Part shown: piece after piece, positions 38,990 to 62,079 of the stretch | How positions within the stretch are numbered: the stretch's first letter is position 1 | Layout of the letters: each line of letters starts with the position of its first letter | NCBI GenBank assembly: GCA_965237955.1 | Contig: OZ250169.1 | Span: 3,648,001-3,712,000 of the forward strand | DNA from: Candidatus Marinacidobacterales bacterium | Lineage (GTDB): Bacteria > Acidobacteriota > Vicinamibacteria > Marinacidobacterales > SMYC01 | Direction: 5' to 3' | Length of the DNA stretch: 64,000 nucleotides | Made by a program: the position numbers and the translations under genes | Notes under the pieces: generated by a model | What the model was told of the DNA's origin: nothing | Databases searched by the model: none | Seen by the model: the letters and a program-made list of their open reading frames with translations, nothing else

Positions 38990-39137
38990 GGGGCATCGTG
39001 AACGCAGATTCCAGCCGAAGGTGAACATCCATTCCAAAGCATCGTGAACACGGATTCCGGGGATCGTGAACATCGATTCCGGGGAAGGTGAACACGGATT
39101 CCAGGCAACGTGAACGCCGGTTCCGGCATCGCGAACG
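38990..39137 (+). repeat. About seven ~22-bp GTGAAC..GATTCC repeats in the IS21 left end
   Basis: Read directly; multiple transposase-binding repeats are typical of IS21 ends. Confidence 0.85.
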
Positions 39138-39199
39138 CTCATCGATAGCACGTTTCAAGGCAACTCTAGGTCGTACCCGGAAGGAGGACGATCTAGGAA

Positions 39200-43701: not shown

Positions 43702-43752
43702 AAATAACATTTAGTCTACCTCCTCTGAATGTAAGACTCCTCGGCGAACACA

Positions 43753-43768
43753 TGCAAGTTGTATTCCA
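43753..43768 (-). promoter_or_regulatory. Candidate sigma-54 promoter of the TonB receptor
   Basis: TGGAATACAACTTGCA = GG-N10-GC spacing, 43 bp upstream of the ATG at 43710. Confidence 0.5.
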
Positions 43769-44157
43769 CTGCCAGCCACAGAAAAATAACACATAAGTCC
43801 ATAGAAATAAGCGTGTTAGGTGGCCGTACCCCTGCCCGATACCCTTTCCTGTTCAAAAATTTGGATGTCATCCGACCGACCGAACGGTCAGCCTGGAACC
43901 CTCGATCAGGTTAATATTCTATCTGAGAATAGCTTGGAGGGACTAGCGACTGACGAATCCGTCGTTCAGAACGATGGATCGGCGCCTTCGGGAGATTGGA
44001 TTTTGACCCAAATAGTCGGAAATCATGGTTAACCGGCGATTTTTTTGAACGCCACAAGCAAGGTGATGTGACCTCGCGGTGTGGTGTAGTATTCCGTGCG
44101 GCAACGCCCGGGGGACGCACGAAATTTACCAAAATTCAATACAGGGAGTCAGCCACG

Positions 44158-47100
44158 ATGCACGCGGGTCTTTCCCCCCGCCTTTTGGCGATTTTCCTCA
44201 TGACCATCCTTGCCGCGGCGTCAACGGCGCGGTCCCAGACGGACATCTCCGAGATTTTCGTTTTGAAAGCTCGGAGCATCGGCCCCTCCGGCATGAGCGG
44301 CCGCATCAGCGCCATTGATGCCGTGAACGCCGACCCCAACATCATCTACGTGGGCGCGGCCACCGGCGGTCTATGGAAGTCCACCTCCGGCGGCGTGACC
44401 TGGATGCCGCTCACCGACAGCATCCCCGCCTCCTCGGTGGGGGCGATCGCGATCTACCAGGCGGCGCCCGAGCTCGTCTGGATCGGCACCGGCGAGCGGA
44501 ATCGCCGCAACTCGGCCGGGGTCGGCACCGGGGTGTACAAGTCGCTGGACGGCGGCAAGAGCTGGCAACACGTGGGGCTCGAGTCGAGCGGCGCGATCGA
44601 CGCGATCGTGTTGCACCCGAGCAATCCGGAGCTTGCCTACGTCGGCGCCCTCGGCAACACCTGGAAGGAGAGCCCGCACCGGGGCGTGTACAAGACCACC
44701 GACGGCGGCAAGAGCTGGGACAAGGTGCTCTACGTGAACGAGACCACCGGTGCCGGCGACCTCGTCATGGATCCCGCGAGCCCCAATCACCTCATTGCCG
44801 CCATGTGGGATCACCGGCGCTGGCCGTGGTTTTTCCGCTCGGGTGGAGCGGGGAGCGGGCTCCACGTCACGTACGACGGCGGCGAGAGCTGGAAGCGGCT
44901 GAGTCCCAACGAAGGCCTCCCCGAGGGCGAGCTCGGCCGCATGGGGCTCGACTTCGCGCGGGGGAACCCCAAGGTGGTTTATGCCGTGGTCGAGGCCAAG
45001 CGCAGCGTAATGCTGCGCTCCGACGACCGTGGCGACACGTGGAAGGTCGTGAACGACTCGTTCACGGCCTTCCACGTTCACGGAAGCGATGTCGCTGAAA
45101 GGATCGCCGGGCGGCCGTTCTACTACGCGCAGGTGCGGGTCGACCCCACCAACGAGGACCGCGTGTATAACTTGCACGGGACGATTGATCGCTCAGAGGA
45201 CGGCGGCAAGCTCTTTCGGCCGCTCCTCCGCTTGGGGCAGGTGCACGGGGATCACCACGCGTTCTGGGTGAGCCCCGACGGCAAGTTCCTGATCGACGGC
45301 AACGACGGCGGGGTCTACCTCTCGCGCGATCGCGGCGCCTCGTGGCGCTTCATCGAGAACCTGCCGCTCGGCCAGTTCTACCACGTCAACGTGGACCTGG
45401 CGACGCCGTTCAACATCATGGGTGGGCTCCAGGACAACCACATGTGGCACGGGCCGAGCTCCGTGTGGCACAACGGCGGCATCCGCTTCTACGACTGGAA
45501 GAACATCGGATTCGGTGATGGCTTCGCCGTGCTCGCCGAGCCCAACGACCCGCGCTACGTCTACGCCACGAGGCAAGGCGGCCGCATCCTCCAGTCCGAT
45601 CTTCAAACCGGCGAGCGCAAGTCCATCGTGCCGGCCCATCCCGAGGCGATCGAGCTCCGGTTCAGCTGGAACGCGGGGATGGCGATCGACCCCCACGACG
45701 GGGCGCTCTACATCGGGAGCCAGTTCGTCCATCGCAGCACGGACATGGGAAGGACGTGGACCCTCATCAGCCCAGACCTCACCACCAACGACCCTGAGAA
45801 GCAGATGCAGGACGAGTCCGGCGGGCTCACGCTCGATGACACCGGGGCGGAGAATCACACCACCATCCTCACCATCGCGCCGTCGCCGGTCGAGCGCGGG
45901 GTGCTCTGGGTCGGCACCGACGACGGCAACGTGCAGCTGACGCGCGACGGCGGCCGCACCTGGCTCAACGTGGTGGAGCGGATCCGCGGCGTGCGCCCGA
46001 ACAGCTGGGTGCCGCACATCGAGGCCTCCAAGTTCGACGGCGGCACGGCGTTCGTGACCTTCGACGATCACCGTCGGGGCGACAACACGCCGTACGTCTT
46101 CAAGACCATGGATTACGGCACCACCTGGACCAGCCTCGTCACCGCGGACATCGAGCCATTCAACTTCGTTCATGTGATCGAGCAGGATCCCGTCGAGGCG
46201 AATTTGCTGTTCCTGGGCACCGAGCACGGAATGTACGTGTCGCTGAACGGAGGCCAGAAGTGGCATCTGTGGCGTCACGGACTCCCGCGGGCTCCCACGC
46301 GGGCCCTCGTCGTGCATCCGAGGGATCACGACCTGGTGATCGCGACACACGGCCGCTCGGTGTACATCCTGGACGATGTGGGGCCGCTGCGCGCGCTGGC
46401 GCGCGATCCCGCGATCGCAAACAGGTCGCTGCACTTGTTCGAGGTCCCGGTGGCCATTCGCTATCAGGTGGCGCCGCCGGATGGGATGCAGGTCACGGGG
46501 GACGGGATGTTCATTGGGGAGAATCGGCCCTACGGGGCGCTCGTGACCTACTCCATTCCCGCCGAGTCCGCGGTAAGAGACACCGCCAAGGTGACCTTCG
46601 AAGTCCTTGACGAGGCTGGTGCCACGATTCGCACGTTCGAGGCTCCGGCCAAGCCGGGCGTCAACCGGACCGCGTGGAACCTGCGACGCGACGCGTTCCG
46701 CCAGCCCCGTGTTCAGGAGGAAGACGCAGCCAGCCCGTCGCTCGTACGGGGGCCGGAGGTGCTGCCCGGCCGTTACACCGTCCGGGTGAAGTTCGAGGGC
46801 CAGGAAGCGAGCGCGGCGGTCGAGGTCCGGGAGGATCCGCGCTTCCAGGTCCCGATGGCGGTGCAGCGTGAGAGGCTGGACTTCATCATGACCGTGGGCC
46901 AGCGTCAGGAAGTCGCCGCCGAAGCGGTCAATCGTCTACGAGACGCGAAGCGCGCCGTCGACCGCGCGGTGGAGCAAGTCGAAGCCAACCGCGGGGCGAC
47001 CGACAGCACCGCCAAGGCGCTGGCATCGGCCGGCCACGACCTCAAGAAGGCGCTCACGAGCGTGGAGGAACTGTTCACTGGACACGGGGTTCAGGGGCAG

Positions 47101-47367
47101 GTGAGCTGGTCGGACGAGGTGCTGCCGCATCTCGGCAATCTCTTCGGTGACATCCACGGCACGCTCAGCTCCGCACGCGAGGCGCCGACCGAGGCCGAGC
47201 GGCTGTACCTGCGGGCGGCCGAAGAGGACCTGAAGCGAGCGCTCAAGCGGACGAACCGGGTCTTCGCGGAGGAGGTGGAGCGGTTCCGGGAGCGGGTGGC
47301 GGCGGGGCTCAACGCGGAGCTCTTCCCGGCGAAGAAGCCTCTGAGCGTCGATTGGAGGCAGCCGTGA
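44158..47367 (+). CDS. Secreted VPS10/sortilin-like BNR-repeat beta-propeller protein, paralog 1
   Basis: Signal peptide; RSIGP...GRI; many S/TxDGGxxW Asp-boxes; HGDHH; GGLQDN; ISPDLT; C-terminal Ig-like and helical regions. Confidence 0.92.
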   Translation: MHAGLSPRLLAIFLMTILAAASTARSQTDISEIFVLKARSIGPSGMSGRISAIDAVNADPNIIYVGAATGGLWKSTSGGVTWMPLTDSIPASSVGAIAIYQAAPELVWIGTGERNRRNSAGVGTGVYKSLDGGKSWQHVGLESSGAIDAIVLHPSNPELAYVGALGNTWKESPHRGVYKTTDGGKSWDKVLYVNETTGAGDLVMDPASPNHLIAAMWDHRRWPWFFRSGGAGSGLHVTYDGGESWKRLSPNEGLPEGELGRMGLDFARGNPKVVYAVVEAKRSVMLRSDDRGDTWKVVNDSFTAFHVHGSDVAERIAGRPFYYAQVRVDPTNEDRVYNLHGTIDRSEDGGKLFRPLLRLGQVHGDHHAFWVSPDGKFLIDGNDGGVYLSRDRGASWRFIENLPLGQFYHVNVDLATPFNIMGGLQDNHMWHGPSSVWHNGGIRFYDWKNIGFGDGFAVLAEPNDPRYVYATRQGGRILQSDLQTGERKSIVPAHPEAIELRFSWNAGMAIDPHDGALYIGSQFVHRSTDMGRTWTLISPDLTTNDPEKQMQDESGGLTLDDTGAENHTTILTIAPSPVERGVLWVGTDDGNVQLTRDGGRTWLNVVERIRGVRPNSWVPHIEASKFDGGTAFVTFDDHRRGDNTPYVFKTMDYGTTWTSLVTADIEPFNFVHVIEQDPVEANLLFLGTEHGMYVSLNGGQKWHLWRHGLPRAPTRALVVHPRDHDLVIATHGRSVYILDDVGPLRALARDPAIANRSLHLFEVPVAIRYQVAPPDGMQVTGDGMFIGENRPYGALVTYSIPAESAVRDTAKVTFEVLDEAGATIRTFEAPAKPGVNRTAWNLRRDAFRQPRVQEEDAASPSLVRGPEVLPGRYTVRVKFEGQEASAAVEVREDPRFQVPMAVQRERLDFIMTVGQRQEVAAEAVNRLRDAKRAVDRAVEQVEANRGATDSTAKALASAGHDLKKALTSVEELFTGHGVQGQVSWSDEVLPHLGNLFGDIHGTLSSAREAPTEAERLYLRAAEEDLKRALKRTNRVFAEEVERFRERVAAGLNAELFPAKKPLSVDWRQP

Positions 47368-47432
47368 TAGGTTTACCAGCACAGGGCCCAGGCCGTTCCT
47401 TTACGTTCCTCAAGTCCAGGGAGATAGACGCC

Positions 47433-50400
47433 ATGCACACGGATTTTTCCCCCCGCCTTTTTGCAATTTTCCTCATGACCATCCTTGCCGCGGGGTCCAC
47501 CGCGCGGTCCCAGACGGACATCACCGGGCTCGCCGGTTTGAAAGCGCGGAGCATCGGCCCCTCCGGCATGAGCGGCCGCATCAGCGCCATTGATGCTGTG
47601 AACGCCGACCCCAACATCATCTACGTCGGCGCGGCCACCGGCGGTCTATGGAAGTCCACCTCCGGCGGTTTGGCCTGGACGCCACTTACCGACAGCCTGC
47701 CTGCCACCTCGATCGGGGCCATTGCCATCAACCAGGCGGTACCAGATCTCGTCTGGATCGGGACTGGCGAAGGGGGTCGCCGCAACTCGGCGGGGGTTGG
47801 CACCGGGGTATACAAGTCTTTGGATGGAGGCAAGAGCTGGCAACACCTGGGACTCGAGTCGACCGGCGCGATCGCCTCGGTCTTGCTCCACCCGACCAAT
47901 CCGGAGATTGCCTATGTAGGTGCTCTCGGCAACACCTGGGCGGAGAGCCCAGAGCGGGGGGTGTACAAGACCACCGACGGGGGCAAGAGCTGGGACAAAG
48001 TGCTCTACGTGAGCGAGACCACCGGTGCCGGCGACCTCGTGATGGATCCCGCAAGCCCCAATCACCTCATTGCGGCCATGTGGGACCATCGTCGCTGGCC
48101 GTGGTTTTTCCGCTCGGGTGGACCGGGGAGCGGGCTCCACGTGACGTACGACGAGGGAGAGAGCTGGAAGCGGCTGAGTGCCAACGAAGGCCTCCCCGAG
48201 GGCGAGCTCGGTCGCATGGGGCTCGACTTCGCGAAGGGGAATCCCAAGGTGGTTTATGCGGTGGTCGAGGCCACACGCAGCGTGATGCTGCGTTCTGGCG
48301 ACCGCGGCGGTACGTGGGAAGTCGTGAATGACCAAGGTGCCGGGCGATCGATCGCCTGGCGGCCGTTCTACTTCGCGCAGGTGGCGGTGGACCCCACTAA
48401 TGAGAACCGCGTGTACAACATACTGAATTCGCTAGATGTCTCGGAGGATGGCGGCAAGAATTTTCGCAGCGTGCAGAATCGTGTGCACGGGGATCACCAC
48501 GCGCTCTGGGTGAGTCCCGATGGCAAGATCCTGATCGACGGCAACGACGGCGGGGTCGCCCTCTCGCGCGACCGCGGCGCCTCCTGGCGCGTCATCGAGA
48601 ACCTGCCGCTCGGCCAGTTCTACCACGTCAACGTGGACCTGGCGACGCCTTTCAACGTCATGGGGGGGCTCCAGGATAACGGCAGTTGGCACGGTCCGAG
48701 CTCCGTGTGGAACAGCGGCGGCATCCGCTTCCCCGACTGGAAGAACGTCGGATCCGGGGATGGCATCGCCGTGCTCGCCCATCCCACCAATCCGCGCTAC
48801 ATCTACGTCACGAGGGAGGACGGCCTCATCATCCGGTCCGACCTTCAAACCGGCGAGCGCAAGTCCATCGTGCCGGCCCATCCTGACGCGACCGAGCTCC
48901 GGTTCAGCTGGAACACGGGGATCGCGCTCGACCCCCACGACGGAGCGCTCTACATCGGGAGCCAGTTTGTCCACCGCAGCACGGACATGGGAACGACCTG
49001 GACCCTGATCAGCCCGGACCTCACCACCAACGACCCCGAGAAGCAGATGCAGGACCAATCCGGTGGGCTCACGCGGGACGACAGCTCGGCGGAGAACCAC
49101 ACCACGATCCTCAGCATCGCGCCATCGCCGGTCGAGCGCGGGGTGCTCTGGGTGGGCACCGACGACGGCAACGTGCAGCTGACGCGCGACGGCGGCGGCA
49201 CGTGGACCAACGTGGTGGAGCGGATCGGGGGCGTGCGCCCGAACAGCTGGGTGTCGCACATCGAGGCCTCGAAGTTCGAGGGCGGGACGGCCTTCGTGAC
49301 CTTCGACGATCACCGTCGGGGCGACAACACGCCCTACGTCTTCAAGACCATGGATTACGGCACCACATGGAGGAGCTTGGTCACCGCGGACATCGAGCCA
49401 TTCAACTTCGTTCATGCGATCGAGCAGGATCCCGTCGAGGCGAATCTGCTGTTCCTGGGTACCGAGTACGGCATGTACGTCTCGCTGGACGGAGGCCAGA
49501 AGTGGCATCTGTGGCGTCACGGTCTGCCGCGTGCGCCCACGCGGGCCCTCGTCGTGCATCCGAGGGATCACGACCTGGTGATCGCGACCCACGGGCGCTC
49601 GGTCTACGTCCTGGATGATGTAGGGCCGCTGCGCGCGCTGGCGCGCGATCCCGCGATCGCAAACAGGCCACTACACCTGTTCGAGCCTCCGGTGGCCATT
49701 CGCTATCATCCGTGGATCATGTGGATGAGTCGCGGTATGGGGGACGGGGCGTTCATCGGGGAGAATCGGCCGTATGGCGCGCTGCTGAGCTACTCCATTG
49801 GCAGCCCAAGCGATGGAGCTGTCACCGGTATCGGGAAGAAGGTGAGCATCGAAGTCGTCGACGAGGCCGGTGCCATCATTCGCACGTTCGAGGCCCCGGC
49901 GAAGCCGGGCGTTAACCGCACTGCGTGGGACCTGCGTCACGATGGGTTCCGCCGCCCCCGTGTTCAGGAGGGAAACGCAGCCGGCCGACCGCTCGTACGG
50001 GGGCCGCAGGTGCTGCCAGGCCGCTACACCCTTCGGATCGAGTTCGAGGGCCAGGACGCGAGTGCAGTCGTCGAGGTCCGGGACGATCCGCGCTTCGAGG
50101 CCCCGATTGCAGCGCAGCGTGAGAGGTTGGATTTCATCATGACGGTGGGCCAGCGTCAGGAAGTCGCCACGGAAGCGGTGGATCGTCTGCGAGACGCGAA
50201 GCGCGCCGTCGGCCGCGCGGTGGAGCAGGTCCAAGCCAACTGCGGGGCGACCGACAGCACCGCCAAGGAGCTGGCCCTGGCCGCCGAGGACGTCGAGAAG
50301 GCGCTCACGGACGTGGAGGTATTGTTTACTGGCACGCTGAACAGAGCTTATGCCGACGGCGGACCGCCCCGCGTCCAGGGGTTCCAAGCGTGGCCGGGCG

Positions 50401-50660
50401 AGGTGCTGCCGCAGCTCAACTTCCTCCTCGGTGAGTGTCCAATGTGCACCACCACGTTCACCCCGTCACGCGAAGCGCCGACCGAGGCCGATCAGCTACG
50501 CCTGCGGGCGGCGGATGAGGACCTGAAGCGAGCGCTCGAGCAGACGAACCGGGTTTTTGCTGAGAACGTGCAGCAGTTCCGGGAACGGGTGAAGGGACTC
50601 AACGCGGAGCTCTTCCTGGCGAAGGAGCCGCTGAGCGTCGATTGGAGACAGCCGCGATAG
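47433..50660 (+). CDS. VPS10/BNR beta-propeller protein, paralog 2
   Basis: Same architecture as paralog 1; RBS CAGGGAG. Confidence 0.92.
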   Translation: MHTDFSPRLFAIFLMTILAAGSTARSQTDITGLAGLKARSIGPSGMSGRISAIDAVNADPNIIYVGAATGGLWKSTSGGLAWTPLTDSLPATSIGAIAINQAVPDLVWIGTGEGGRRNSAGVGTGVYKSLDGGKSWQHLGLESTGAIASVLLHPTNPEIAYVGALGNTWAESPERGVYKTTDGGKSWDKVLYVSETTGAGDLVMDPASPNHLIAAMWDHRRWPWFFRSGGPGSGLHVTYDEGESWKRLSANEGLPEGELGRMGLDFAKGNPKVVYAVVEATRSVMLRSGDRGGTWEVVNDQGAGRSIAWRPFYFAQVAVDPTNENRVYNILNSLDVSEDGGKNFRSVQNRVHGDHHALWVSPDGKILIDGNDGGVALSRDRGASWRVIENLPLGQFYHVNVDLATPFNVMGGLQDNGSWHGPSSVWNSGGIRFPDWKNVGSGDGIAVLAHPTNPRYIYVTREDGLIIRSDLQTGERKSIVPAHPDATELRFSWNTGIALDPHDGALYIGSQFVHRSTDMGTTWTLISPDLTTNDPEKQMQDQSGGLTRDDSSAENHTTILSIAPSPVERGVLWVGTDDGNVQLTRDGGGTWTNVVERIGGVRPNSWVSHIEASKFEGGTAFVTFDDHRRGDNTPYVFKTMDYGTTWRSLVTADIEPFNFVHAIEQDPVEANLLFLGTEYGMYVSLDGGQKWHLWRHGLPRAPTRALVVHPRDHDLVIATHGRSVYVLDDVGPLRALARDPAIANRPLHLFEPPVAIRYHPWIMWMSRGMGDGAFIGENRPYGALLSYSIGSPSDGAVTGIGKKVSIEVVDEAGAIIRTFEAPAKPGVNRTAWDLRHDGFRRPRVQEGNAAGRPLVRGPQVLPGRYTLRIEFEGQDASAVVEVRDDPRFEAPIAAQRERLDFIMTVGQRQEVATEAVDRLRDAKRAVGRAVEQVQANCGATDSTAKELALAAEDVEKALTDVEVLFTGTLNRAYADGGPPRVQGFQAWPGEVLPQLNFLLGECPMCTTTFTPSREAPTEADQLRLRAADEDLKRALEQTNRVFAENVQQFRERVKGLNAELFLAKEPLSVDWRQPR

Positions 50661-50711
50661 AGTCTAAGCCGTTCCTTTATGTCCTCAAGTAAGTCCAGGG
50701 AGATAGACGCC

Positions 50712-53700
50712 ATGCATACGGATCTTTCCCCCCGCCTTTCGGCGGTTTTCCTCGTGACCATCCTTGCCGCGGCGTCAACGGCGCGGTCCCAGACGGACAT
50801 CACCGAGCTTGCCGGTTTGAAAGCTCGGAGCATCGGCCCCTCCGGCATGAGCGGCCGCATCAGCGCCATTGATGCCGTGAACGCCGACCCCAACATCATC
50901 TACGTGGGCGCGGCCACCGGGGGTCTATGGAAGTCCACGTCCGGCGGCGTGGCTTGGACGCCGCTCACCGACAGCCTGCCGGCGTCCTCGGTGGGGGCGG
51001 TCTCGATCTACCAGGCGGCGCCCGAGCTCGTTTGGATCGGCACCGGTGAGCACGGCCGCCGCAACTCGGCCGGGGTCGGCACCGGTGTGTACAAGTCGCT
51101 GGACGGCGGCAAGAGCTGGCAACATGTGGGTCTCGAGTCGACGGGGGCGATCAGTGAGATCGTGTTGCACCCGAGCAATCCGGACGTGGCCTACGTGGGC
51201 GCCCTGGGCAACACGTGGAAGGGGAGTGAGGACCGCGGCGTGTACAAGACCACCGACGGCGGCAACACGTGGGAGAAGGTGCTCTACGTGAACGAGACCA
51301 CCGGTGCTGGGGATCTCGTCATGGATCCCGCGAGTCCCAATCACCTCATGGCCGCCATGTGGGATCACCGTCGCTGGCCGTGGTTTTTCCGCTCGGGTGG
51401 AGCGGGAAGCGGGCTCCACGTCACCTACGACGGCGGCGAGAGCTGGAAGCGGCTGAGTCCGAGAGAAGGTCTCCCGGAGGGCGAGCTCGGTCGCATAGGG
51501 CTCGCCTTCGCGCCGGGGAATCCCGAGGTGGTTTATGCGGTGGTCGAGGCCAAACACAGCGTCATGATGCGCTCCGACGACCGCAGCGAGACGTGGAAGG
51601 TCGTAAGCGATAGAGGCGGCTTGCGATCGATCGCGAGACGCCCGTTCTACTTCGCGAGGTTGGTGGTGGACCCCGTCAACGAGAACCGTGTGTACAACTT
51701 GGTGGGGACGTTGAATCTCTCGGAGGATGGCGGCAAGAACTTTCGCAGGCTCCAAAACGGGCGGGTGCACGGGGATCACCATGCGCTCTGGGTGAGCCTC
51801 GACGGCAAGATCCTGATCGACGGCAATGACGGCGGGGTCACCCTTTCACATGACCGGGGTGCCTCGTGGCGCTTCATCGAGAACTTGCCGCTCGGCCAGT
51901 TCTACAAGATCAACGTGGACCTGGCGACGCCGTTCAACGTCATGGGCGGGCTCCAGGACAACGGCATGTGGCACGGACCGAGCTCGGTGTGGAACAACGT
52001 CGGCATCGGCTTCTCCGACTGGAAGGAGGTGGGATCCGGCGACGGCTTCGCGACGCTCGCCGTTCCCGGAAACCCGCGCTACGTTTACTCCACGAGGGAG
52101 GCCGGCTACATCGTCCGATCCGATCTTCAAACCGGTGAGCGCCACACGATCGGGCCCGCCCATCCCGAGGGGATCGATCTCCGCTACAACTGGAACCCGG
52201 GGATGGCCATCGATCCCCACGATGGATCGCTCTACTTCGGGAGCCAGTTCGTCCACCGCAGCACGGACATGGGAACGACGTGGACCCTCCTGAGCCCAGA
52301 CCTCACCACCAACGACCCCGAGAAGCAGATGGCGGACCAATCCGGCGGGCTCTCGCGCGACGACACCGAAGCGGAAAACCACACCGCGATCCTCACCATC
52401 GCGCCGTCGCCGGTCGAGCGTGGGGTGCTCTGGGTCGGCACCGACGACGGCAACGTGCAGCTGACGCGTGACGGCGGCGGCACCTGGGTCAACGTGGTGG
52501 AGCGGATCCGCGGCGTGCGCCCGAACAGCTGGGTGCCGCACATCGAGGCCTCCAAGTTCGAGGGTGGCACGGCCTTCGTGACCTTCGACGATCACCGTCG
52601 GGGCGACAACACGCCCTACGTCTTCAAGACCATGGATTACGGCACCACCTGGACCAGCCTGGTCACCGCGGACATCGAGCCATTCAACTTCGTTCATGTG
52701 ATCGAGCAGGATCCCGTCGAATTTGCTGTTTCTCGGCACCGAATACGGCATGTACGTCTCGCTGAACGGAGGTCAGAAGTGGCATCTGTGGCGTCACGGA
52801 CTCCCGCGTGCTCCGACCCGGGCCCTCGTCGTGCATCCTCGGGATCACGACCTGGTGATCGCGACCCACGGGCGCTCGGTGTACATCCTGGACGACGTGG
52901 GGCCGCTGCGCGCGCTGGCGCGCGATCCGGCGATCTCAAACCGGCCGCTACACTTGTTCGAGGTTCCGGTGACCACTCGCCATCTTCTGTGGCGCCGGTA
53001 TATGACCCGTGGCAACGGGGATGGAATGTTCATTGGGGAGAATCGGCCGTACGGGGCCGCTCGTGACCTACTCCATTTCTACCGAGTCCGTAGCAAGCGA
53101 CACCGCGAAGGTGACCATCGAAGTCCTCGACGAGGCGGGTGCCACGATCCGCACGTTCGAGGCTCCGGCCAAGCCGGGCATCAACCGGACCGCGTGGGAC
53201 TTGCGTCGGGACTCGATCCGCCTGCCTCCTGCGGAAGTGACATCGGCCCCGTCGCTCCACCCGGGGCCGCAAGTGCTGCCCGGCCGCTACACCGTTCGCA
53301 TCGAGCTCACGGGCGAGGAAGTGAGCGCGGCGGTCGAGGTCCGCGAGGATCCGAGATTCGACGTCCCGATCGCGGCCCAGCGCGAGAAGCTGGACTTCCT
53401 CATCACCGTGGGCCAGCGCGTGGAAGTCGCCACGGAAGCAGTCAATCGTCTGCGATACGCGAAACGTGCCGTCGACCGCGTGGTCGAACAAGTCCAGGCC
53501 AACCGCGGGGCGAGCGACGGTACCGCCAAGGAGCTGGCATCGGCCGGTGGCGACCTCAAGGAGGCGCTCACCGACGTGGAGGTGCTGTTCACCGGAGACA
53601 CGATGAACTTTTATCTCGACGGAGGGCCCCAGCGGATTCAGGGGATGGAGAGCTGGCCCGACGACGTGCTACCGCAGCTTTTGGACCTCACCGGCGACGG

Positions 53701-53911
53701 CGCCCTCGGCACGTTCACGCCGTCACGCGACGCGCCCACCGAGGCGGAGCGGCTGCATCTGCAGGCAGCCGAAGAGGATCTAGAGCAAGCAATCGAGCAA
53801 ACGAACCTGGTTTTGGCGGAGGAGGTGGGGCGCTTCCGGGACCAGGTGGCGGCGGCGCTCGGCGTGGAGTTTTTCCCGGCCAAGGAGCCGCTGAGCGTCG
53901 ATTGGAGGTAG
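50712..53911 (+). pseudogene. VPS10/BNR beta-propeller protein, paralog 3, two frameshifts
   Basis: 5-nt deletion at ~52720 (GTCGA|ATTTG vs GTCGAGGCGAATTTG) and +1 C at ~53057 relative to siblings. Confidence 0.88.
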
Positions 53912-53989
53912 CCGCGATTGGCCTGACTAGCACAGGGTTCAGGCCGTTCTTATACCATCCTTAATATGAGTCCAGGGAGACGGACACCG

Positions 53990-56900
53990 ATGCACACTGG
54001 TCCTTCCACTCGCCTTTCCTCGGTTTTCCTCGTGACCCTCCTTGCTGCGGCGTCCACGGCGCGGTCCCAGACGGACATCATCGGGCTTGCCGGTTTGAAA
54101 GCGCGGAGCGTCGGCCCCTCCGGCATGGGCGGCCGCATCAGTGCGATCGATGCCGTGAACGCCGACCCCAACATCATCTACGTGGGCGCGGCCACCGGGG
54201 GTCTATGGAAGTCCACCTCCGGCGGCGTGGCTTGGACGCCGCTCACCGATAGCCTGCCGGCGTCCTCGGTGGGGGCGGTCGCCATCTACCAGGCGGCGCC
54301 CGAGCTCCTCTGGATCGGTACTGGCGAAGGGGGTCGCCGCAACTCGGCTGGGGTCGGCACCGGGGTGTACAAGTCGTTGGACGGCGGCAAGAGCTGGCAA
54401 CACGTGGGGCTTGAGTCGACCGGGGCGATCCACGAGATCGTGTTGCACCCGAGCAATCCGGAGCTCGCCTACGTCGCCGCGCTCGGCAATACCTGGAAGG
54501 AGAGCCCGGATCGGGGCGTGTACAAGACCACCGACGGTGGCAAGAGCTGGGAGCAGGTGCTCTACGTGAACGAGACCACGGGTGCCGCGGACCTGGTCAT
54601 GGATCCGGCGAGCCCGAATCACCTCATTGCGGCCATGTGGGACCACCGGCGGTGGCCGTGGTTTTTCCGCTCGGGTGGACCTGGGAGCGGGCTCCACGTC
54701 ACGTACGACGGGGGAGAGAGCTGGAAGCAGCTCAGTGCTAACGAAGGCCTTCCCGAGGGCGAGCTCGGCCGCATGGGGCTCGACTTCGCGCGGGGAAACC
54801 CCAAGGTGGTTTATGCCGTGGTCGAAGCGAAACGCAGCGTGATGCTGCGCTCCGACGACCGCGGTAACACGTGGGAGGTCGTGAACGACCAGGCCGGCAT
54901 GCGCTCGATCGCGAGACGCCCGTTTTACTTCTCGAGGGTGCGGGTGGACCCCACCAACGAGAACCGCGTGTACAACTTGGTGGGGTCGATGGATCTCTCG
55001 GAGGACGGCGGCAAGAACTTTCGCGTGCTCATGAAGCGGACGCACGGGGATCACCACGCGCTGTGGGTGAGCCCCGACGGCAAAATCCTGATCGACGGCA
55101 ACGACGGCGGGGTCTATCTCTCGCCGGATCGCGGCGCCACCTGGCGCTTCATCGAGAACCTGCCGCTCGCTCAGTTCTACAAGATCAGCGTGGACCTGGC
55201 GACGCCGTTCAACATCATGGGCGGGCTCCAGGACAACGACATGTGGCACGGGCCGAGCTCCGTGTGGCACGACGGCGGCATCCGCTTCTCCGACTGGAAG
55301 GAGGTGGGATACGGCGACGGTTTCACGGTGCTCGCCGAGCCCACCAATCCGCGCTACATCTACGCCACGAGAGAGGCCGGCTTCATCGTCCGGTCCGATC
55401 TTCGAACCGGCGAGCGCAAGTCCATCAAGCCGGCCCATCCCGAGGCGACCAAGCTCCGGTTCAACTGGAACCCTGGGATGGAGATCGACCCCCACGACGG
55501 GGCGCTCTACCTCGGGAGCCAGTTCGTCCATCGCAGCACGGACATGGGAAGGACCTGGACGATCATCAGCCCAGACCTCACCACCAACGACCCCGAGAAG
55601 CAGATGGCGGACCAATCCGGCGGGCTCTCGCGCGACGACACCGAGGCGGAGAACCACACCACCATCCTCACCATCGCGCCGTCGCCGGTCGGGCGCGGGG
55701 TGCTCTGGGTGGGCACCGACGACGGCAACGTGCAGCTGACGCGCGACGGCGGCGGCACCTGGGTCAACGTGGTGGAGCGAATCCGGGGCCTGCGCCCGAA
55801 CAGCTGGGTGTCGCACATCGAGGCCTCCAAGTTCGAGAGTGGGACGGCCTTCGTGACCTTCGACGATCACCGTCGGGGCGACAACACGCCCTGCGTCTTC
55901 AAGACCATGGATTACGGCAACACGTGGACGAGCCTGGTCACCGCGGACATCGAGCCATTCAACTTCGTTCACGTGATCGAGCAGGATCCCGTCGAGGCGA
56001 ATCTGCTGTTCCTGGGCACCGAGTATGGAATGTACGTCTCGCTGAACGGAGGCCAGAAGTGGCATCTGTGGCGTCACGGACTCCCGCGTGCTCCGACGCG
56101 GGCCCTCGTCGTGCATCCGAGGGATCACGACCTGGTGATCGCGACCCACGGCCGCTCGGCGTACATTCTGGACGACGTAAGGCCGCTGCGCGCGCTGGCG
56201 CGCGATCCCGCGCTCGCAAACAGGCCACTACACGTGTTCGACCCTCCGGCGGCCATTCGCTACCATTCGTGGCGTAGGTGGATGGGTCGCGGAAGTGGAG
56301 ACGCGATGTTCATTGGGGAGAATCGGCCCTACGGGGCGCTCGTGACCTACTCCATCGGCAGCCACAGCGATAGAGCTGTAAACGGTAGCGGGAAGGCGGA
56401 AGGGGGAAGCACCCCACCGGCTTCGGGCGACACGTCAGCCCAGAGCGCCGCGTCCGCCGAAAAAGACACCGCGAAGGTGACCTTCGAAGTCCTCGACGAG
56501 GCCGGTGCAATCATTCGCACGTTCGAGGCCCCAGCGAAGCCGGGCGTCAACCGGACCGCGTGGGACCTCCGTCACGACGGGTTCCGCCGCCCCCTTGTTC
56601 AGGAGGAAGGCGCAGCCGGCCCGTCGTTCGTACAGGGGCCGGAGGTGTTGCCCGGCCGTTACACCGTCCGGGTGAAGTTCGAGGGCCAGGAAGCGAGCGC
56701 GGCGGTCGAGGTCCTGGAGGATCCGCGCTTCCAGGTCCCGATGGCGGTGCAGCGTGAGAGGCTGGAGTTCGTCATGACCGTGGGCCAGCGTTTGGAAGTC
56801 GCCGCCGAAGCGGTGGATCGTCTACGAGACGCGAGGCGCGACGTCGACCGCGTGGTGGAGCAGGTCGAAGCCAACCGCGGGGCGAGCGACGGCACCGCGA

Positions 56901-57289
56901 AGGCGCTGGCATCGGCCGGCCACGACCTCAAGAACGCGCTCACGGACGTGGAGGTACTGTTCACCGGAGACACGATGAACTTTTTGGTCGACAGAGGACC
57001 GGAGCGAATTCAGGGGATGGAGAGCTGGCCGGACGAGGTGCTGTCGCAGCTCAGCTATCTCACCGGCGACCTCTACAGCGGCACATTCACCCCGCCACGC
57101 GAGGCGCCGACCGAGGCCGAGCGGCTGCACCTGCGGGCGGTCGAAGAGGACCTGAAGCAGGCGCTCGAGCGTACCAACCGGATCTTCGCGGAGGAGGAGG
57201 CGCGGTTCCGGGAGCGCGTGGCGGCGGGGCTTAACGCGGAGCTCTTCCCGGCGAAGGAGCCTCTGAGTGTCGATTGGAGGCATCCGTGA
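53990..57289 (+). CDS. VPS10/BNR beta-propeller protein, paralog 4
   Basis: Same architecture as paralog 1. Confidence 0.92.
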   Translation: MHTGPSTRLSSVFLVTLLAAASTARSQTDIIGLAGLKARSVGPSGMGGRISAIDAVNADPNIIYVGAATGGLWKSTSGGVAWTPLTDSLPASSVGAVAIYQAAPELLWIGTGEGGRRNSAGVGTGVYKSLDGGKSWQHVGLESTGAIHEIVLHPSNPELAYVAALGNTWKESPDRGVYKTTDGGKSWEQVLYVNETTGAADLVMDPASPNHLIAAMWDHRRWPWFFRSGGPGSGLHVTYDGGESWKQLSANEGLPEGELGRMGLDFARGNPKVVYAVVEAKRSVMLRSDDRGNTWEVVNDQAGMRSIARRPFYFSRVRVDPTNENRVYNLVGSMDLSEDGGKNFRVLMKRTHGDHHALWVSPDGKILIDGNDGGVYLSPDRGATWRFIENLPLAQFYKISVDLATPFNIMGGLQDNDMWHGPSSVWHDGGIRFSDWKEVGYGDGFTVLAEPTNPRYIYATREAGFIVRSDLRTGERKSIKPAHPEATKLRFNWNPGMEIDPHDGALYLGSQFVHRSTDMGRTWTIISPDLTTNDPEKQMADQSGGLSRDDTEAENHTTILTIAPSPVGRGVLWVGTDDGNVQLTRDGGGTWVNVVERIRGLRPNSWVSHIEASKFESGTAFVTFDDHRRGDNTPCVFKTMDYGNTWTSLVTADIEPFNFVHVIEQDPVEANLLFLGTEYGMYVSLNGGQKWHLWRHGLPRAPTRALVVHPRDHDLVIATHGRSAYILDDVRPLRALARDPALANRPLHVFDPPAAIRYHSWRRWMGRGSGDAMFIGENRPYGALVTYSIGSHSDRAVNGSGKAEGGSTPPASGDTSAQSAASAEKDTAKVTFEVLDEAGAIIRTFEAPAKPGVNRTAWDLRHDGFRRPLVQEEGAAGPSFVQGPEVLPGRYTVRVKFEGQEASAAVEVLEDPRFQVPMAVQRERLEFVMTVGQRLEVAAEAVDRLRDARRDVDRVVEQVEANRGASDGTAKALASAGHDLKNALTDVEVLFTGDTMNFLVDRGPERIQGMESWPDEVLSQLSYLTGDLYSGTFTPPREAPTEAERLHLRAVEEDLKQALERTNRIFAEEEARFRERVAAGLNAELFPAKEPLSVDWRHP

Positions 57290-57354
57290 TAGTGTTGCCG
57301 ACGCAAAGCTGGTGCTGTTCCAATATGTTCCTTAAATTCAGGGAGTCAGCCACG

Positions 57355-60300
57355 ATGCACACGGATCTTTTCCCTCGCCTTTCGGCGGTTTTCCTCGTGA
57401 CCATTCTTGCCGCGGCGTCAACGGCGCGGTCCCAGACGGACATCACCGAGCTTGCCGGTTTGAAAGCTCGGAGCATCGGCCCCTCCGGCATGAGCGGCCG
57501 CATCAGCGCCATTGATGCCGTGAACGCCGACCCCAACATCATCTACGCGGGCGCGGCCACCGGCGGTCTATGGAAGTCCACCTCCGGCGGCGTGACCTGG
57601 ACGCCACTCACCGACAGCCTGCCCGCGTCCTCGGTGGGGGCGATCGCGATCTACCAGGCGGCGCCCGAGCTCGTCTGGATCGGCACCGGCGAGCGCAACC
57701 GCCGCAACTCGGCCGGGGTCGGCACCGGGGTGTACAAGTCGCTGGACGGCGGTAAGAGCTGGCAACACGTGGGGCTCGAGTCGAGCGGCGCGATCGACGC
57801 GATCGTGTTGCACCCGAGCAATCCGGAGCTCGCCTACGTCGGCGCCCTCGGCAACACCTGGAAGGAGAGCCCGCACCGGGGCGTGTACAAGACCACCGAC
57901 GGCGGCAAGAGCTGGGACAAGGTGCTCTACGTGAACGAGACCACCGGTGCCGGCGACCTCGTCATGGATCCCGCGAGCCCCAATCACCTCATTGCCGCCA
58001 TGTGGGATCACCGGCGCTGGCCGTGGTTTTTCCGCTCGGGTGGAGCGGGGAGCGGGCTCCACGTCACGTACGACGGCGGCGAGAGCTGGAAGCGGCTGAG
58101 TCCCAACGAAGGCCTCCCCGAGGGCGAGCTCGGCCGCATGGGGCTCGACTTCGCGCGGGGGAACCCCCAGGTGGTTTATGCCGTGGTCGAGGCCAAGCGC
58201 AGCGTGTTGCTGCGCTCCGACGACCGCGGCGACACGTGGAAGGTCGTGAATGACGAGGGCGGCTATCCGTCGCCGATCGCCTGGCGGCCGTTCTACTACG
58301 CGCAGGTGCGGGTGGACCCCACCAACGAGAACCGCGTGTACAACGTGCAGGGGACGATAGGTCTCTCGGAGGACGGCGGCAAGAACTTTCGCAGGTTCCA
58401 GACCCGGGTGCACGGGGATCACCACGCGCTCTGGGTGAGCCCCGACGGCAAGTTCCTGATCGACGGCAATGACGGCGGGGTCGCCCTCTCGCGTGACCGC
58501 GGCGCCTCCTGGCGCTTCATCGAGAACCTGCCGCTGGCCCAGTTCTACCACATCAACGTGGACCTAGCGACGCCGTTCAACGTCATGGGCGGGCTCCAGG
58601 ACAACGGCATGTGGCACGGGCCGAGCTCCGTGTGGCACAACGGCGGCATCCCGTTCTCCGCCTGGAGGAACATCGGAGCCGGTGATGGCATGGCCGTGCT
58701 CGCCGAGCCCAACGACCCGCGCTACGTCTACACCACGAGGGAGGCCGGCTACGTCGTCCGGTCCGATCTTCAAACCGGCGAGCGCAGGTCCATCGTGCCG
58801 GCCCATCCCGAGGGGATCGAGCTCCGGTTCAGCTGGAACCCGGGGATGGCGATCGACCCCCACGACCAAGCGCTCTACATCGGGAGCCAGTTCGTCCATC
58901 GCAGCACGGACACGGGAAGGACGTGGACCCTCATCAGCCCAGACCTCACCACCAACGACCCTGAGAAGCAGATGCAGCACACGTCCGGCGGGCTCACGCG
59001 CGACGACACCGAAGCGGAGAATCACACCACCATCCTCACCATCGCGCCGTCGCCGGTCGAGCGCGGGGTGCTCTGGGTCGGCACCGACGACGGCAACGTG
59101 CAGCTGACGCGCGACGGCGGCGGCACCTGGCTCAACGTGGTGGAGCGGATCCGCGGCGTGCGCCCGAACAGCTGGGTGCCGCACATCGAGGCCTCCAAGT
59201 TCGACGGCGGCACGGCGTTCGTGACCTTCGACGATCACCGTCGGGGCGACAACACGCCGTACGTCTTCAAGACCATGGATTACGGCACCACCTGGACCAG
59301 CCTCGTCACCGCGGACATCGAGCCATTCAACTTCGTTCATGTGATCGAGCAGGATCCCGTCGAGGCGAATTTGCTGTTCCTGGGCACCGAGTACGGAATG
59401 TACGTCTCGCTGAACGGAGGCCAGAAGTGGCATCTGTGGCGTCACGGACTCCCGCGGGCTCCCACGCGGGCCCTCGTCGTGCATCCGAGGGATCACGACC
59501 TGGTGATCGCGACACACGGCCGCTCGGTGTACATCCTGGACGACGTGGGGCCGCTGCGCGCGCTCGCGCGCGATGCCGCGATCGCAAACAGGCCACTACA
59601 CTTGTTCGACCCTCCGGTGGCCATTCGCTATCATCCGTGGCTCAGGGGGAGGAATGACGGCAACGGGATCTTCACTGGGGAGAATCGGCCCTACGGGGCG
59701 CTCCTGACCTACTCCATCGGCAGCCACAGCGATAGAGCTGTAACCGGTAGCGGGAAGGCGGAAGGCGGAAGCACCCCACCGGCTTCGGGCGACACGTCAG
59801 CCCAGAGCGCCGCGTCCGCGGAAAAAGACCCCGCGAAGGTGACCTTCGAAGTCCTTGACGAGGCCGGTGCCATCATTCGCACGTTCGAGGCCCCAGCGAA
59901 GCCGGGCGTTAACCGCACCGCGTGGGACCTCCGTCACGACGGGTTCCGCCGCCCCCGTATTCAGGAGGGAAACGCTGCGGTCCGGTCGTTCGCACGGGGG
60001 CCGGAGGTGCTGCCAGGCCGTTACACCGTTCGGATCGAGTTCGAGGGCCAGGAGGCGAGCGCGGCACTCGAGGTCCGGGAGGATCCGCGCTTCCAGGTCC
60101 CGATGGCAGCGCAGCGCGAGAGGCTGGATTTCATCATGACCGTGGGCCAGCGCCAGGAAGTCGCCGCGGAAGCGGTGGATCGTCTACGAGGCGCGAGGCG
60201 CGCCGTCAGCCGCGCGGTGGAGCAGGTCCAAGCCAACCGCGGGGCGACTGACAGCACCGCCCAGGAGCTGGCATCGGCCGGCGACGACCTCGAGGAGGCG

Positions 60301-60657
60301 CTCTTCGGGGTGGAGGAACTGTTCACGGGAGACGCGGGGAACTTTTATACCCTCGGAGCGCAGCGAATTCAGGGGTTCCGCGCGTGGCCGGGCGAGGTGC
60401 TGCCGCAGCTCGACTACGTCATCGGCGGCTGTGGAATGTGCAGAACCACGTTCACCCCGTCACGCGAGGCGCCGACCGAGGCCGAGCGGCTACACCTGCG
60501 GGCGGCCGAAGAGGACCTGAAGCGAGCGCTCGAGCGGACGAACCGGATCTTCGCCGAGGACGTGGCGCGGTTCCGGAAGCGGGTAGCGGACGGGCTCAAC
60601 GTGGAGCTCTTCCCGGCGAAGGAGCCGCTGAGCGTCGATTGGAGGCAGCCGCGATAG
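57355..60657 (+). CDS. VPS10/BNR beta-propeller protein, paralog 5
   Basis: Same architecture as paralog 1. Confidence 0.92.
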   Translation: MHTDLFPRLSAVFLVTILAAASTARSQTDITELAGLKARSIGPSGMSGRISAIDAVNADPNIIYAGAATGGLWKSTSGGVTWTPLTDSLPASSVGAIAIYQAAPELVWIGTGERNRRNSAGVGTGVYKSLDGGKSWQHVGLESSGAIDAIVLHPSNPELAYVGALGNTWKESPHRGVYKTTDGGKSWDKVLYVNETTGAGDLVMDPASPNHLIAAMWDHRRWPWFFRSGGAGSGLHVTYDGGESWKRLSPNEGLPEGELGRMGLDFARGNPQVVYAVVEAKRSVLLRSDDRGDTWKVVNDEGGYPSPIAWRPFYYAQVRVDPTNENRVYNVQGTIGLSEDGGKNFRRFQTRVHGDHHALWVSPDGKFLIDGNDGGVALSRDRGASWRFIENLPLAQFYHINVDLATPFNVMGGLQDNGMWHGPSSVWHNGGIPFSAWRNIGAGDGMAVLAEPNDPRYVYTTREAGYVVRSDLQTGERRSIVPAHPEGIELRFSWNPGMAIDPHDQALYIGSQFVHRSTDTGRTWTLISPDLTTNDPEKQMQHTSGGLTRDDTEAENHTTILTIAPSPVERGVLWVGTDDGNVQLTRDGGGTWLNVVERIRGVRPNSWVPHIEASKFDGGTAFVTFDDHRRGDNTPYVFKTMDYGTTWTSLVTADIEPFNFVHVIEQDPVEANLLFLGTEYGMYVSLNGGQKWHLWRHGLPRAPTRALVVHPRDHDLVIATHGRSVYILDDVGPLRALARDAAIANRPLHLFDPPVAIRYHPWLRGRNDGNGIFTGENRPYGALLTYSIGSHSDRAVTGSGKAEGGSTPPASGDTSAQSAASAEKDPAKVTFEVLDEAGAIIRTFEAPAKPGVNRTAWDLRHDGFRRPRIQEGNAAVRSFARGPEVLPGRYTVRIEFEGQEASAALEVREDPRFQVPMAAQRERLDFIMTVGQRQEVAAEAVDRLRGARRAVSRAVEQVQANRGATDSTAQELASAGDDLEEALFGVEELFTGDAGNFYTLGAQRIQGFRAWPGEVLPQLDYVIGGCGMCRTTFTPSREAPTEAERLHLRAAEEDLKRALERTNRIFAEDVARFRKRVADGLNVELFPAKEPLSVDWRQPR

Positions 60658-60825: not shown

Positions 60826-62079
60826 GTGAGATTCACGCAAGCTCTTTGTCGAGGGGCGACAACGGTAATTTGCGTTGTGTCCATGGGATGCGAACAGCCG
60901 GCAATGGAGGGGGCGACGGCTGCCGGTGAGGAGGAGACGAGCATACCGGAGTTTAGAGTCGATCCCTTCTGGCCGAAGCCGCTGCCCAACGACTGGCTCA
61001 TCGGAGAGATAGCCGGGTTAGCGGTCGACTCGCGCGATCACGTCTGGGTCTTTCAGCGGCCGGGGAGCTTGACCGCGGACGAGCTAGGCGCGGCGCAAGA
61101 TCCGCCCATCTCGGTTTGTTGCAAGCCGGCTCCATGGATCCTGGAGTTCGATGAGGAAGGCAATCTCATTCAGTCATGGGGTGGTCCCGGGTCCGGCTAC
61201 GACTGGCCTAGCGTCGAGCACGGACTCTTCGTCGACCATAAGGGTAACGTCTGGATAGGCGGGGAAAGCCGGGAGGACCATCAAGTGCTGAAGTTCAGCT
61301 CCGAGGGCACTTTCCTCCTCCAGATCGGACAGGCTGGAAAGACCGGCGGGAACAACCATAAGGAATTTCTTGGACATCCCACCGACATAGAAGTCGATCC
61401 CAAGACGAACGAAGTCTTCGTTTCAGACGGCTACCTGAACAGGCGCGTGATCGTATTCGACGCGGAAACGGGGGAGTACAAGCGTCACTGGGGAGCTTAC
61501 GGCAACGAGCCGGAGGATTTCGCGCCCGGCATCTACTACGCCGGGGGGAGGTACAAGAAGACGGGACCTGACGGAGAGCCGGTCGATGCCGGTCTCACGC
61601 CGCCCATAGCGCCGGGGAGACGTACCCCAGGCTCTGAAACCACCTACAATCCGGACGACCCCCCCTCACAGCAGTTCAACATTGTGCATGGGGTTCGCGT
61701 CACGAACGACGGGCTCGTTTACGTGGCGGATCGCACCAACAACCGTATTCAGGTCTTCCAAAGAGACGGCACCTTCGTGAAGGAAGTCGTCATCGCCAAC
61801 AAGACGATGGGAGAAGGAACGGCCTGGGATGTGGATGTTTCATCGGATGAGAATCAGACCTTTCTATATGTCGCCGATGGAACCAACCAGCGGGTCTGGA
61901 TCCTGCGACGAGAAGACCTGGAGATTCTCGGTTCCTTCGGCCGCCGCGGCCATGGCGCGGGCGAATTCCACTGGGTGCACCGTTTGGCGGTGGACTCCCA
62001 CGGTAACATCTACACCGGCGAGGTGAGCCGAGGGCGGCGCCTCCAGAAGTTCGTTTTAGAGAAGAAAGAGGCGACCTAA
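60826..62079 (+). CDS. NHL-repeat lipoprotein, peptidyl-alpha-hydroxyglycine alpha-amidating lyase (PAL)-like
   Basis: Lipobox-like SMGC; VDPFWPKPLP, HGLFVD, VSDGYLNRRV, VYVADRTNNRIQVF, HRLAVDS.GNIYTGEV. Confidence 0.85.
   Translation: MRFTQALCRGATTVICVVSMGCEQPAMEGATAAGEEETSIPEFRVDPFWPKPLPNDWLIGEIAGLAVDSRDHVWVFQRPGSLTADELGAAQDPPISVCCKPAPWILEFDEEGNLIQSWGGPGSGYDWPSVEHGLFVDHKGNVWIGGESREDHQVLKFSSEGTFLLQIGQAGKTGGNNHKEFLGHPTDIEVDPKTNEVFVSDGYLNRRVIVFDAETGEYKRHWGAYGNEPEDFAPGIYYAGGRYKKTGPDGEPVDAGLTPPIAPGRRTPGSETTYNPDDPPSQQFNIVHGVRVTNDGLVYVADRTNNRIQVFQRDGTFVKEVVIANKTMGEGTAWDVDVSSDENQTFLYVADGTNQRVWILRREDLEILGSFGRRGHGAGEFHWVHRLAVDSHGNIYTGEVSRGRRLQKFVLEKKEAT

Follow-up and report, generated by a model that had tools for sequence, protein, structure and literature searches.

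What kind of system do five neighbouring genes encode when they share long tracts of almost identical DNA and differ in the same few short segments? The question is raised by a tandem array at positions 44158-60657 of a 64,000-nucleotide stretch (hereafter the window) of contig OZ250169.1 from Candidatus Marinacidobacterales bacterium (assembly GCA_965237955.1), which corresponds to G000:C1:3648001-3712000 of a genome, G000, assembled as a single contig of 8.13 Mb with 60% G+C. An initial annotation, made from the letters alone, had proposed a set of VPS10-like propellers with antibody-like framework and hypervariable loops. The tandem array described here is real, was probably shared horizontally and subfunctionalised, and belongs to a large orphan family; it is neither antibody-like nor a new diversity-generating system. 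The evidence is much stronger for its architecture and evolutionary history than for its substrate class.

Five paralogues with a predicted GH74-like fold

The five paralogues lie head to tail on the same strand, with spacers of 65, 51, 78 and 65 bp (51-78 bp, given as ~50-80 bp in the initial annotation) and a G+C content of 65-67%. Pairwise identities are 82.5-91.9% at the DNA level and 71-86% at the protein level, and several 200-nt windows of genes 1 and 5 are 99-100% identical, in agreement with the near-identity over hundreds of base pairs noticed before. The six short divergent segments (a-f) and the invariant motifs that flank them were found in the alignment where they had been placed, segment e of gene 3 included. 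The features of the array are the following:

44158..47367, + strand: gene 1 (type 1; 1069 aa; signal peptide judged by eye; pocket closest to outside relatives)
45055..45765, + strand: gene 1 blades 6-10, type-specific sector (coordinates hand-counted on the alignment)
47433..50660, + strand: gene 2 (type 2; 1075 aa; the modelled paralogue, with double propeller, Ig-like domain and helical bundle)
48330..49007, + strand: gene 2 blades 6-10 (mature residues 274-499), type-specific sector containing segments b, c and d
50712..53911, + strand: gene 3 (type 3; reading frame disrupted near 52718, where 5 nt are deleted, and near 53057, where 1 nt is inserted)
53990..57289, + strand: gene 4 (type 4; 1099 aa; 29-residue linker insertion also in gene 5)
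57355..60657, + strand: gene 5 (type 5; 1100 aa; framework shaped in part by conversion with gene 1, in either direction)

All five copies are thus present, as annotated, but gene 3 is not an intact open reading frame (ORF). Its insertion is absent from contigs of samples X1, X3 and X7 and the missing 5 nt are present in X7, in a comparison in which paralogues co-map at both places. The intact form in other samples indicates that the break is specific to this strain or to this assembly, and the frameshifts may be either a strain mutation or an assembly error. A scan for promoters and terminators gave signals no commoner than in shuffled sequences. RNA contigs of X19 and X20, two runs of one study, span portions of genes 1-3 and deviate from them at few positions, which does not establish expression. 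Apparent "go back" joints in X7 and X9 fit ordinary gene junctions.

An AlphaFold2 model of mature gene 2, built on a 150-sequence alignment (pLDDT 91.7, pTM 0.90), shows 14 four-stranded blades over mature residues 13-701, followed by an Ig-like domain and long helices. The top 20 entries listed by Foldseek for this model are all GH74 xyloglucanases (best E 5e-23), VIA-align superposed about 600 residues on GH74 structures (Z 28-29, rmsd 5-6; for 6p2k, Z 29.3, rmsd 5.2 and 607 aligned residues) and, among the 20 hits of a family profile search, the top rank went to GH74 (E 2e-17) and the lowest to SorCS2 (E 0.007). The predicted fold of the array protein is therefore a 7+7 double propeller of the GH74 kind and not the VPS10 ring of the initial annotation; the sortilin propeller has 10 blades (PMC2716378), and a 10-bladed ring with a tunnel is rejected on the 14-blade model and the fold searches. 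What the array proteins have in common with Vps10 receptors (sortilin, SorCS2; PF15902) are the Asp-box repeats, a Pfam model above its cut-off and, possibly, an arginine-based binding of carboxylates; they have neither the 10CC domain nor the membrane helix of these receptors. In fact, Pfam recognises Sortilin-Vps10 and BNR in short stretches only: PF15902 reaches 64-85 bits (cut-off 33), but covers only positions 3-115 of the 446 of the profile, about 125 residues per stretch. The NCBIfam F510_1955 glycosylhydrolase model (NF045728) gives 118-132 bits, below its cut-off of 175. The C-terminal 325 residues returned only generic Ig-like and helical-bundle matches in a fold search (best Z 10.3, rmsd 2.8, 94 aligned residues). 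The array proteins hold 0-3 cysteines each and show no visible lipobox or membrane anchor. A Cys-x-x-Cys pair, present only in segment f of types 2 and 5, lies in a low-confidence loop of the helical domain, and a disulfide or a metal site is possible there.

The array proteins belong to a family of about 1050 aa, named "glycosyl hydrolase / VPS10 domain / WD40-YVTN-BNR", with 6,288 clusters at 50% identity (E up to 1e-30) in Acidobacteriota, Gemmatimonadota and Bacteroidota; it occurs in 38 of 41 related genomes and at 39 loci in G000. ESM Atlas matches carry only automatic names of this same family, and a literature search, with subscription papers and supplements outside its scope, found no study of the family or of this array.

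The modelled fold invites a comparison with GH74 xyloglucanases (2cn2/2cn3, PoGH74 6mgl, ancestral AFV00434 6p2k and OXG-RCBH 1sqj), which are likewise tandem 7+7 Asp-box propellers. The array proteins are 14-18% identical to them, carry the additional C-terminal Ig-like domain and helical bundle, and have no carbohydrate-active enzyme among the neighbours identified. The aspartate mutated to alanine in 2cn3 (relative to 2cn2) aligns to A42 (numbering of mature gene 2, used throughout), which is alanine in 133 of 137 relatives; aspartate is not among the commonest residues at this position in 22 G000 paralogues. Since the first catalytic aspartate is replaced by alanine, the family is not GH74 proper. 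A different His/Asp/Gln/Arg set is conserved instead: R23, D328, H330, D346, Y371, Q388, D389, D/E417, R464 and D552 are kept in 21-22 of the 22 G000 paralogues, distant to about 30% identity, whereas positions 372 and 436 vary both among the types and among these paralogues. Many conserved arginines are carried by the cleft loops. The invariant D389 lies, in the model, in the BC loop of blade 8, the loop in which the second GH74 catalytic aspartate is located; the proposed equivalence is one of topology, and the stretch around D389 gave no alignment in a profile search against GH74.

Type-specific sector and evolutionary history

Columns with at least three residues among the five genes number 107 of 1029 and are strongly clustered (statistic 2.76, against a maximum of 1.31 over 2000 permutations), which upholds the concentration of divergence in short segments. 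Segments a, b, c and most of d fall in predicted top-face loops or adjacent strands, loops being assigned from the secondary structure of the model and not from its coordinates. Positions with at least three states are concentrated in blades 6-10 (33/226, versus 9/459 in the rest of the propellers; p 5e-10). Loops e and f are further places where the variation gathers. Since this sector was chosen post hoc, three controls matter. Conservation in outside relatives is the same in blades 6-10 and elsewhere (0.71 versus 0.73, p 0.41). Positions invariant in the family were changed more often in blades 6-10 (12/80, versus 7/147 elsewhere; p 0.011), G391, S392, F415, Q436 and H372 among them. Amino-acid divergence is 0.23 in blades 6-10 and 0.115 in blades 1-5, with a four-fold synonymous divergence of 0.21 and 0.27, respectively; as the latter is not raised in blades 6-10, missing gene conversion does not explain the sector. 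The suggestion that a single scaffold carries specificity loops next to polar residues that do not vary thus holds up, the variation lying in one sector of the predicted cleft and also at positions invariant outside the subfamily.

By blade count in HMMER alignment pieces, a tryptophan pair of 2cn2 is placed in the BC loop of blade 6, that is, in segment c. Positive-subsite tryptophans of GH74 are described in PMC10317168, and we equated them by numbering with this pair. On this basis, the variable sector would make up the half of the cleft with the positive subsites, and the other half would be the conserved side with E87, R91 and R23.

The same five types recur in related organisms. Two genomes of the same family and another genus (G009 and G013; 16S 96-97% and ribosomal plus RNA-polymerase region 76-83% identical in DNA to G000) hold 5 and 7 subfamily copies, three-gene arrays included, of which 11 of 12 are intact. 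Genes 2-5 are each 95-96% identical in DNA to a copy in these genomes, closer than to any sibling; the best outside match of gene 1 is 90.9%, just below its 91.9% to gene 5. In a quick and unfinished tree, all 32 subfamily rows form one clade and sort into the five types, and the nearest outside relatives, one of them named from bacterium HR33, are 70-75% identical. As far as sequence comparison reaches, the subfamily is a recent monophyletic radiation with changes at positions invariant in its relatives.

Across 76 distinct full-length proteins, loops differ by 0.54 between types and 0.12 within them (0.019 in type 4), and frameworks by 0.115 and 0.045. These proteins were drawn from clusters at 90% identity, a choice biased towards similarity, and the list of top homologues showed no further type; P0298, an outside relative, is excluded from the 76, yet slightly inflates the within-type figure of type 1. 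Segment types are discordant in only 4 of the 76, mostly in segment e, and otherwise travel together, so combinatorial loop shuffling, also considered, is rare. An independent sample yielded a 331-nt contig over the b and c loops of gene 2 with zero differences. Because each segment is nearly fixed within its type, "hypervariable" in the antibody sense is wrong, and the comparison of loop alleles across related genomes, proposed in the initial annotation, returned five stable and co-travelling types where a variable repertoire had been expected.

Full subfamily genes were found in 3 of 401 class genomes searched at the DNA level (two candidates scored per genome), with a 5' piece in a fourth, and a JGI metagenome scan gave no subfamily member (best match 67%). 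A third genus (G012, L173:7482-8997) holds this 5' piece of only 1030 nt, accompanied by the shared upstream region (91-98% identity). Such scattered occurrence, combined with 95-96% identity between genera, points to the cassette having been transferred horizontally, and recently, between them. Horizontal transfer among sponge symbionts in general is reported in PMC8163846. Gene 2 is present in 20 runs from 11 studies, mostly under nine coded organism labels, and a seawater metagenome from one of these studies holds next to no gene 2 words; this distribution makes a host-associated habitat likely. Marinacidobacterales probably live in sponges, although the literature search gave no confirming paper.

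Gene conversion accounts for the framework. Genes 1 and 5 share an identical tract of 336 columns (permutation p 0.0005), a PHI-like test detects recombination (p 0.001), and framework windows switch nearest neighbour, columns 800-1600 following type; judged from the alignment, the framework is homogenised by gene conversion. The 29-residue linker insertion of genes 4 and 5 (approximately 56390-56480 and 59760-59850) is missing from the type 4 genes of G009 and G013, and in gene 4 it is likely a conversion tract from type 5.

Selection on the loops is less simple. By the counting method, the ratio of non-synonymous to synonymous substitution (dN/dS) between types is 1.05-1.23 in segments a-f, which were chosen for varying, versus 0.27 in the framework. 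Maximum-likelihood (ML) codon models on four block trees gave an omega of 0.50 for the segments, significantly below 1 (2dL 32.6), versus 0.09 for the blades outside the sector, so on average the loops do not exceed neutrality, an outcome that the initial annotation had itself named as refuting its interpretation. Branch-site tests on the type stems still suggest episodic selection (2dL 17.5, 10.1, 0 and 8.3, block by block); the highest-ranking sites fall in segments a, b, c, e and f. We read this as probable bursts of change at the origin of each type, then purifying selection.

Retroelement-driven diversification was considered and rejected: there is no adenine bias (variable fraction in loops by base: A 0.79, C 0.69, G 0.70 and T 0.60) and no linked reverse transcriptase or template repeat, genome-wide blastn having found no short loop-covering repeat near the array. 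Reverse transcriptase matches occur at four places in G000, the nearest about 100 kb from the array. They comprise three full genes and one split gene (G000:C1:373672, 559791, 1030007 and 3589014), with frames of 460-485 aa, a size typical of group II introns. With diversity-generating retroelements and immunoglobulin-like repertoires, the array shares only the framework-plus-loop look of its alignment, and it differs from them in these respects and in the lack of within-type hypervariability. The array also resembles adhesin, TonB-receptor and SusD arrays, which are tandem arrays with gene conversion and divergent specificity regions: these have in common with the present array a converted framework, a type-specific region, horizontal transfer and pseudogenised copies. 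The array differs from them in that its product is a soluble double propeller and its types are few, stable across genera and little shuffled.

Genomic context and proposed function

The order TonB-dependent receptor, array and PAL-like NHL lipoprotein is conserved in G000, G009 and G013. In the window, the array is accompanied by the following features:

36366..38979, - strand: TonB-dependent receptor, 3' part (Pfam Plug, TonB_dep_Rec and OMP_b-brl_4), divergent from the array and interrupted by IS21
38980..41922, + strand: IS21-family insertion sequence (IS) element in the receptor gene (IS21 transposase and IstB; about 30 full-length genome copies)
41923..42317, - strand: TonB-dependent receptor, 5' part, 94.7% identical to nt 2-392 of an intact copy
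42318..43701, - strand: ISL3 element at the receptor gene start (transposase 42322-43449; many near-identical genome copies)
43702..44157, no strand: divergent intergenic region, 93-96% identical to three other G000 loci and 72-73% to the G009/G013 array loci
60826..62079, + strand: NHL six-bladed lipoprotein, similar to peptidyl-alpha-hydroxyglycine alpha-amidating lyase (PAL; Pfam NHL; 3fvz E 1e-18), following the array
62614..64000, - strand: distant propeller-family member, 3' end (33% identity), the first of three further copies beyond the window

The PAL-like lipoprotein is 92% identical in protein to its G009 copy, and two histidines and the tyrosine and arginine motifs align with 3fvz, the third histidine being out of register. 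These presumably correspond to the zinc histidines and the catalytic tyrosine and arginine of PAL. In G000, a distance of at most 2 kb separates 4 of the 39 family loci from a PAL-like gene, where 0.3 would be expected (p 0.003); for a distance of 10 kb the count is 11 of the 39, with 0.9 expected. Among the neighbours of subfamily copies (73 of 100 called ORFs scanned, at non-independent loci), about 15 in all are peptidases, gamma-glutamyltranspeptidase, LamB/YcsF, acetamidase or amidase. No glycoside hydrolase Pfam family was found among these 73 neighbours or the 73 scanned around outside relatives, versus 2 of 62 distal genes.

We tentatively propose that the five fixed isoforms are exported periplasmic cleft enzymes acting on peptide- or amide-type nutrients, the substrate being chosen by the variable half of the cleft. 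The TonB-dependent receptor would import an oligomeric substrate; the conserved arginines R23, R91 and R464 would hold an acidic group common to all substrates, while blades 6-10 would read its variable part; the near-invariant D328, H330, D346, Q388, D389 and D/E417, at the hinge, would do the chemistry, possibly with a metal; and the PAL-like lipoprotein and nearby amidases would process the products. The history would run from horizontal transfer between co-occurring genera, through tandem duplication and bursts on the type stems, to purifying selection, with conversion smoothing the framework while IS elements scatter and break copies. Since the same versions recur in other genera, the array is probably a set of tools, common to these genera, for different peptide-like nutrients and not an antibody-like repertoire.

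Several points weigh against this proposal. The nearest solved relatives are all glycosidases. The blade 6-10 sector was picked after the variation had been seen, its placing in one pocket reflects predicted blade topology and not model coordinates, and top-face loops as a class are not enriched in variable positions over bottom-face loops (17/236 versus 8/176, p 0.30). The invariant acids may be structural and not catalytic, since Asp-Gly turns recur in propeller BC loops. Support for site-wise positive selection is weak, M2a improving on M1a with p 0.02 and 0.055 for 0.5% of sites, the top ones in a linker; the branch-site result of block 2 (omega 86) stands beside indels and is suspect, and these results are sensitive to recombination and alignment. 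Peptidase- or amidase-type neighbours of outside relatives (15/73, versus 5/62 distal controls) give a weak enrichment of p 0.052, from 73 genes hand-picked out of 150 called and with differing thresholds; when the five Balneolaceae loci, which are related, are merged, p becomes 0.19. Finally, 5 of the 9 near-complete subfamily copies in G000 are frameshifted which, with the IS-disrupted receptor, suggests that the module may be decaying in this genome.

A possible, if unlikely, alternative is that these enzymes derive from GH74 and act on glycans, from the host or dissolved, but not on xyloglucan; the second aspartate would have been kept and the first replaced, and the types would differ in their positive subsites. 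The best fold and profile hits are all GH74, D389 occupies the presumed place of the second aspartate, and a sulfatase adjoins the dispersed copy D. Segments b and c lie on the loops with positive-subsite tryptophans (PMC10317168), and a Xanthomonas GH74 binds sugars through arginines and is linked to TonB-dependent transporters, according to PMC8245568. It has to be set against this that the first aspartate is A42, that the 146 scanned neighbours hold no glycoside hydrolase family and that the co-location is with PAL-like genes.

It is quite unlikely that the proteins are non-catalytic binders, sortilin- or SusD-like, that take up ligands with a free carboxylate, differing by type, at the cell surface or in the periplasm and pass them to transporters and peptidases. 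The loss of one GH74 catalytic aspartate, the many arginines in the cleft loops, the Pfam Sortilin-Vps10 match above cut-off and the conserved gene order with a TonB-dependent receptor would all fit such a role. However, the Asp/His/Gln set is kept in 21-22 of 22 paralogues while its neighbours vary, which is more typical of catalysis and, unlike SusD and sortilin, the array proteins show no lipobox or membrane anchor.

We consider it improbable that the genes are recent duplicates drifting under relaxed selection, with loops that are merely tolerant and types that do the same job. Frameshifts in 5 of 9 copies, a loop dN/dS of 0.5 and not above 1, the absence of enrichment in top-face loops and the correlation of between-type with family-wide variability (rho -0.37 with conservation) speak for drift; loops near-fixed within types across genera and many assemblies, the intactness of 11 of 12 copies in G009 and G013, and a sector that is not more variable in outside relatives and yet changed at otherwise invariant positions speak against it.

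An antibody-like repertoire actively diversified against changing targets, whether a retroelement, the conversion of cassettes or diversifying selection of great strength were behind it, is highly improbable and already largely refuted: clustered divergence with indels, recombination, scattered gene fragments and episodic selection on the stems speak for it, but all close database relatives fall within the same five types, segments are near-invariant within types (4 of 76 proteins discordant; no difference in the independent 331-nt contig), no reverse transcriptase is closer than about 100 kb, the loops have no adenine bias, and most fragments end at high-copy repeats.

Whether the proposed peptide- or amide-cleaving activity extends to the whole family of about 1050 aa, as unrecognised enzymes of GH74 fold with TonB uptake and PAL-like lyases, is doubtful; the cassette would then be a specificity series pinpointing the active site and the specificity loops. 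In any case, five isoforms with type-locked pockets make the function of a large family testable, and the cassette is an instance of genes having been exchanged recently among Vicinamibacteria genera that are probably associated with hosts. GH74 is reported to be among the most prevalent glycoside hydrolase families in Acidobacteria genomes and likewise in sponge Chloroflexi (PMC5900883 and PMC6306507, respectively). If proteins such as these contribute to GH74 counts, inferences of xyloglucan use would need revision and, if they cleave peptides or amides, part of the GH74 counted in such genomes would not be xyloglucanase.

Dispersed copies and surrounding genes

Dispersed at other places in G000 are four copies that are nearly complete but without exception frameshifted, as well as four fragments, most of which end at high-copy repeats. 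Copies B and C of gene 1 (G000:C1:905130-910628 and 2076832-2080405) are 99% identical in DNA and share the same 2-nt deletion, so this break was inherited and is not an assembly error. Copy C contains the spacer between genes 1 and 2 and the start of the next paralogue. Beside copy B the receptor is intact and identical to the disrupted one of the window, whose 3' part is 100% identical to nt 387-3000 of it. The receptor belongs to an expanded paralogue family of about ten copies with 50-100% identity (among them G000:C1:55334-120512, 359666-362635, 2895517-2898492 and 8029889-8032855), also found in G009 and G013, and this family may have the same type structure. No sigma-70 consensus was found in the intergenic region 43702..44157.

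G000 holds eight PAL-like NHL genes, that of the window (60826-62079) included, all with the tyrosine and arginine motifs; they cluster with the double-propeller family, and this association could represent a module of general occurrence. In G009 and G013, the type 2 genes that stand alone (L013:3280-8525 and L016:11375-16706) lie between a DUF1549/DUF1553 plus DUF1501 pair and a gamma-glutamyltranspeptidase. At five Balneolaceae loci (L040, L044, L055, L061 and L062), a Met-zincin (DUF4953/5117/5118) stands upstream of the family gene, directly in four and one gene off in L055, and a fatty acid hydroxylase follows the family gene in four of the five.

The first 39 kb of the window (839-39000) form a defence and IS island with a G+C content of 53-63%, versus 65-67% in the array. 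It encodes SelO, a DUF4062/NACHT-like protein, FRG, DUF2806, type I restriction M and S subunits and GmrSD, together with IS1380, IS3/IS481-like and IS5 transposases.

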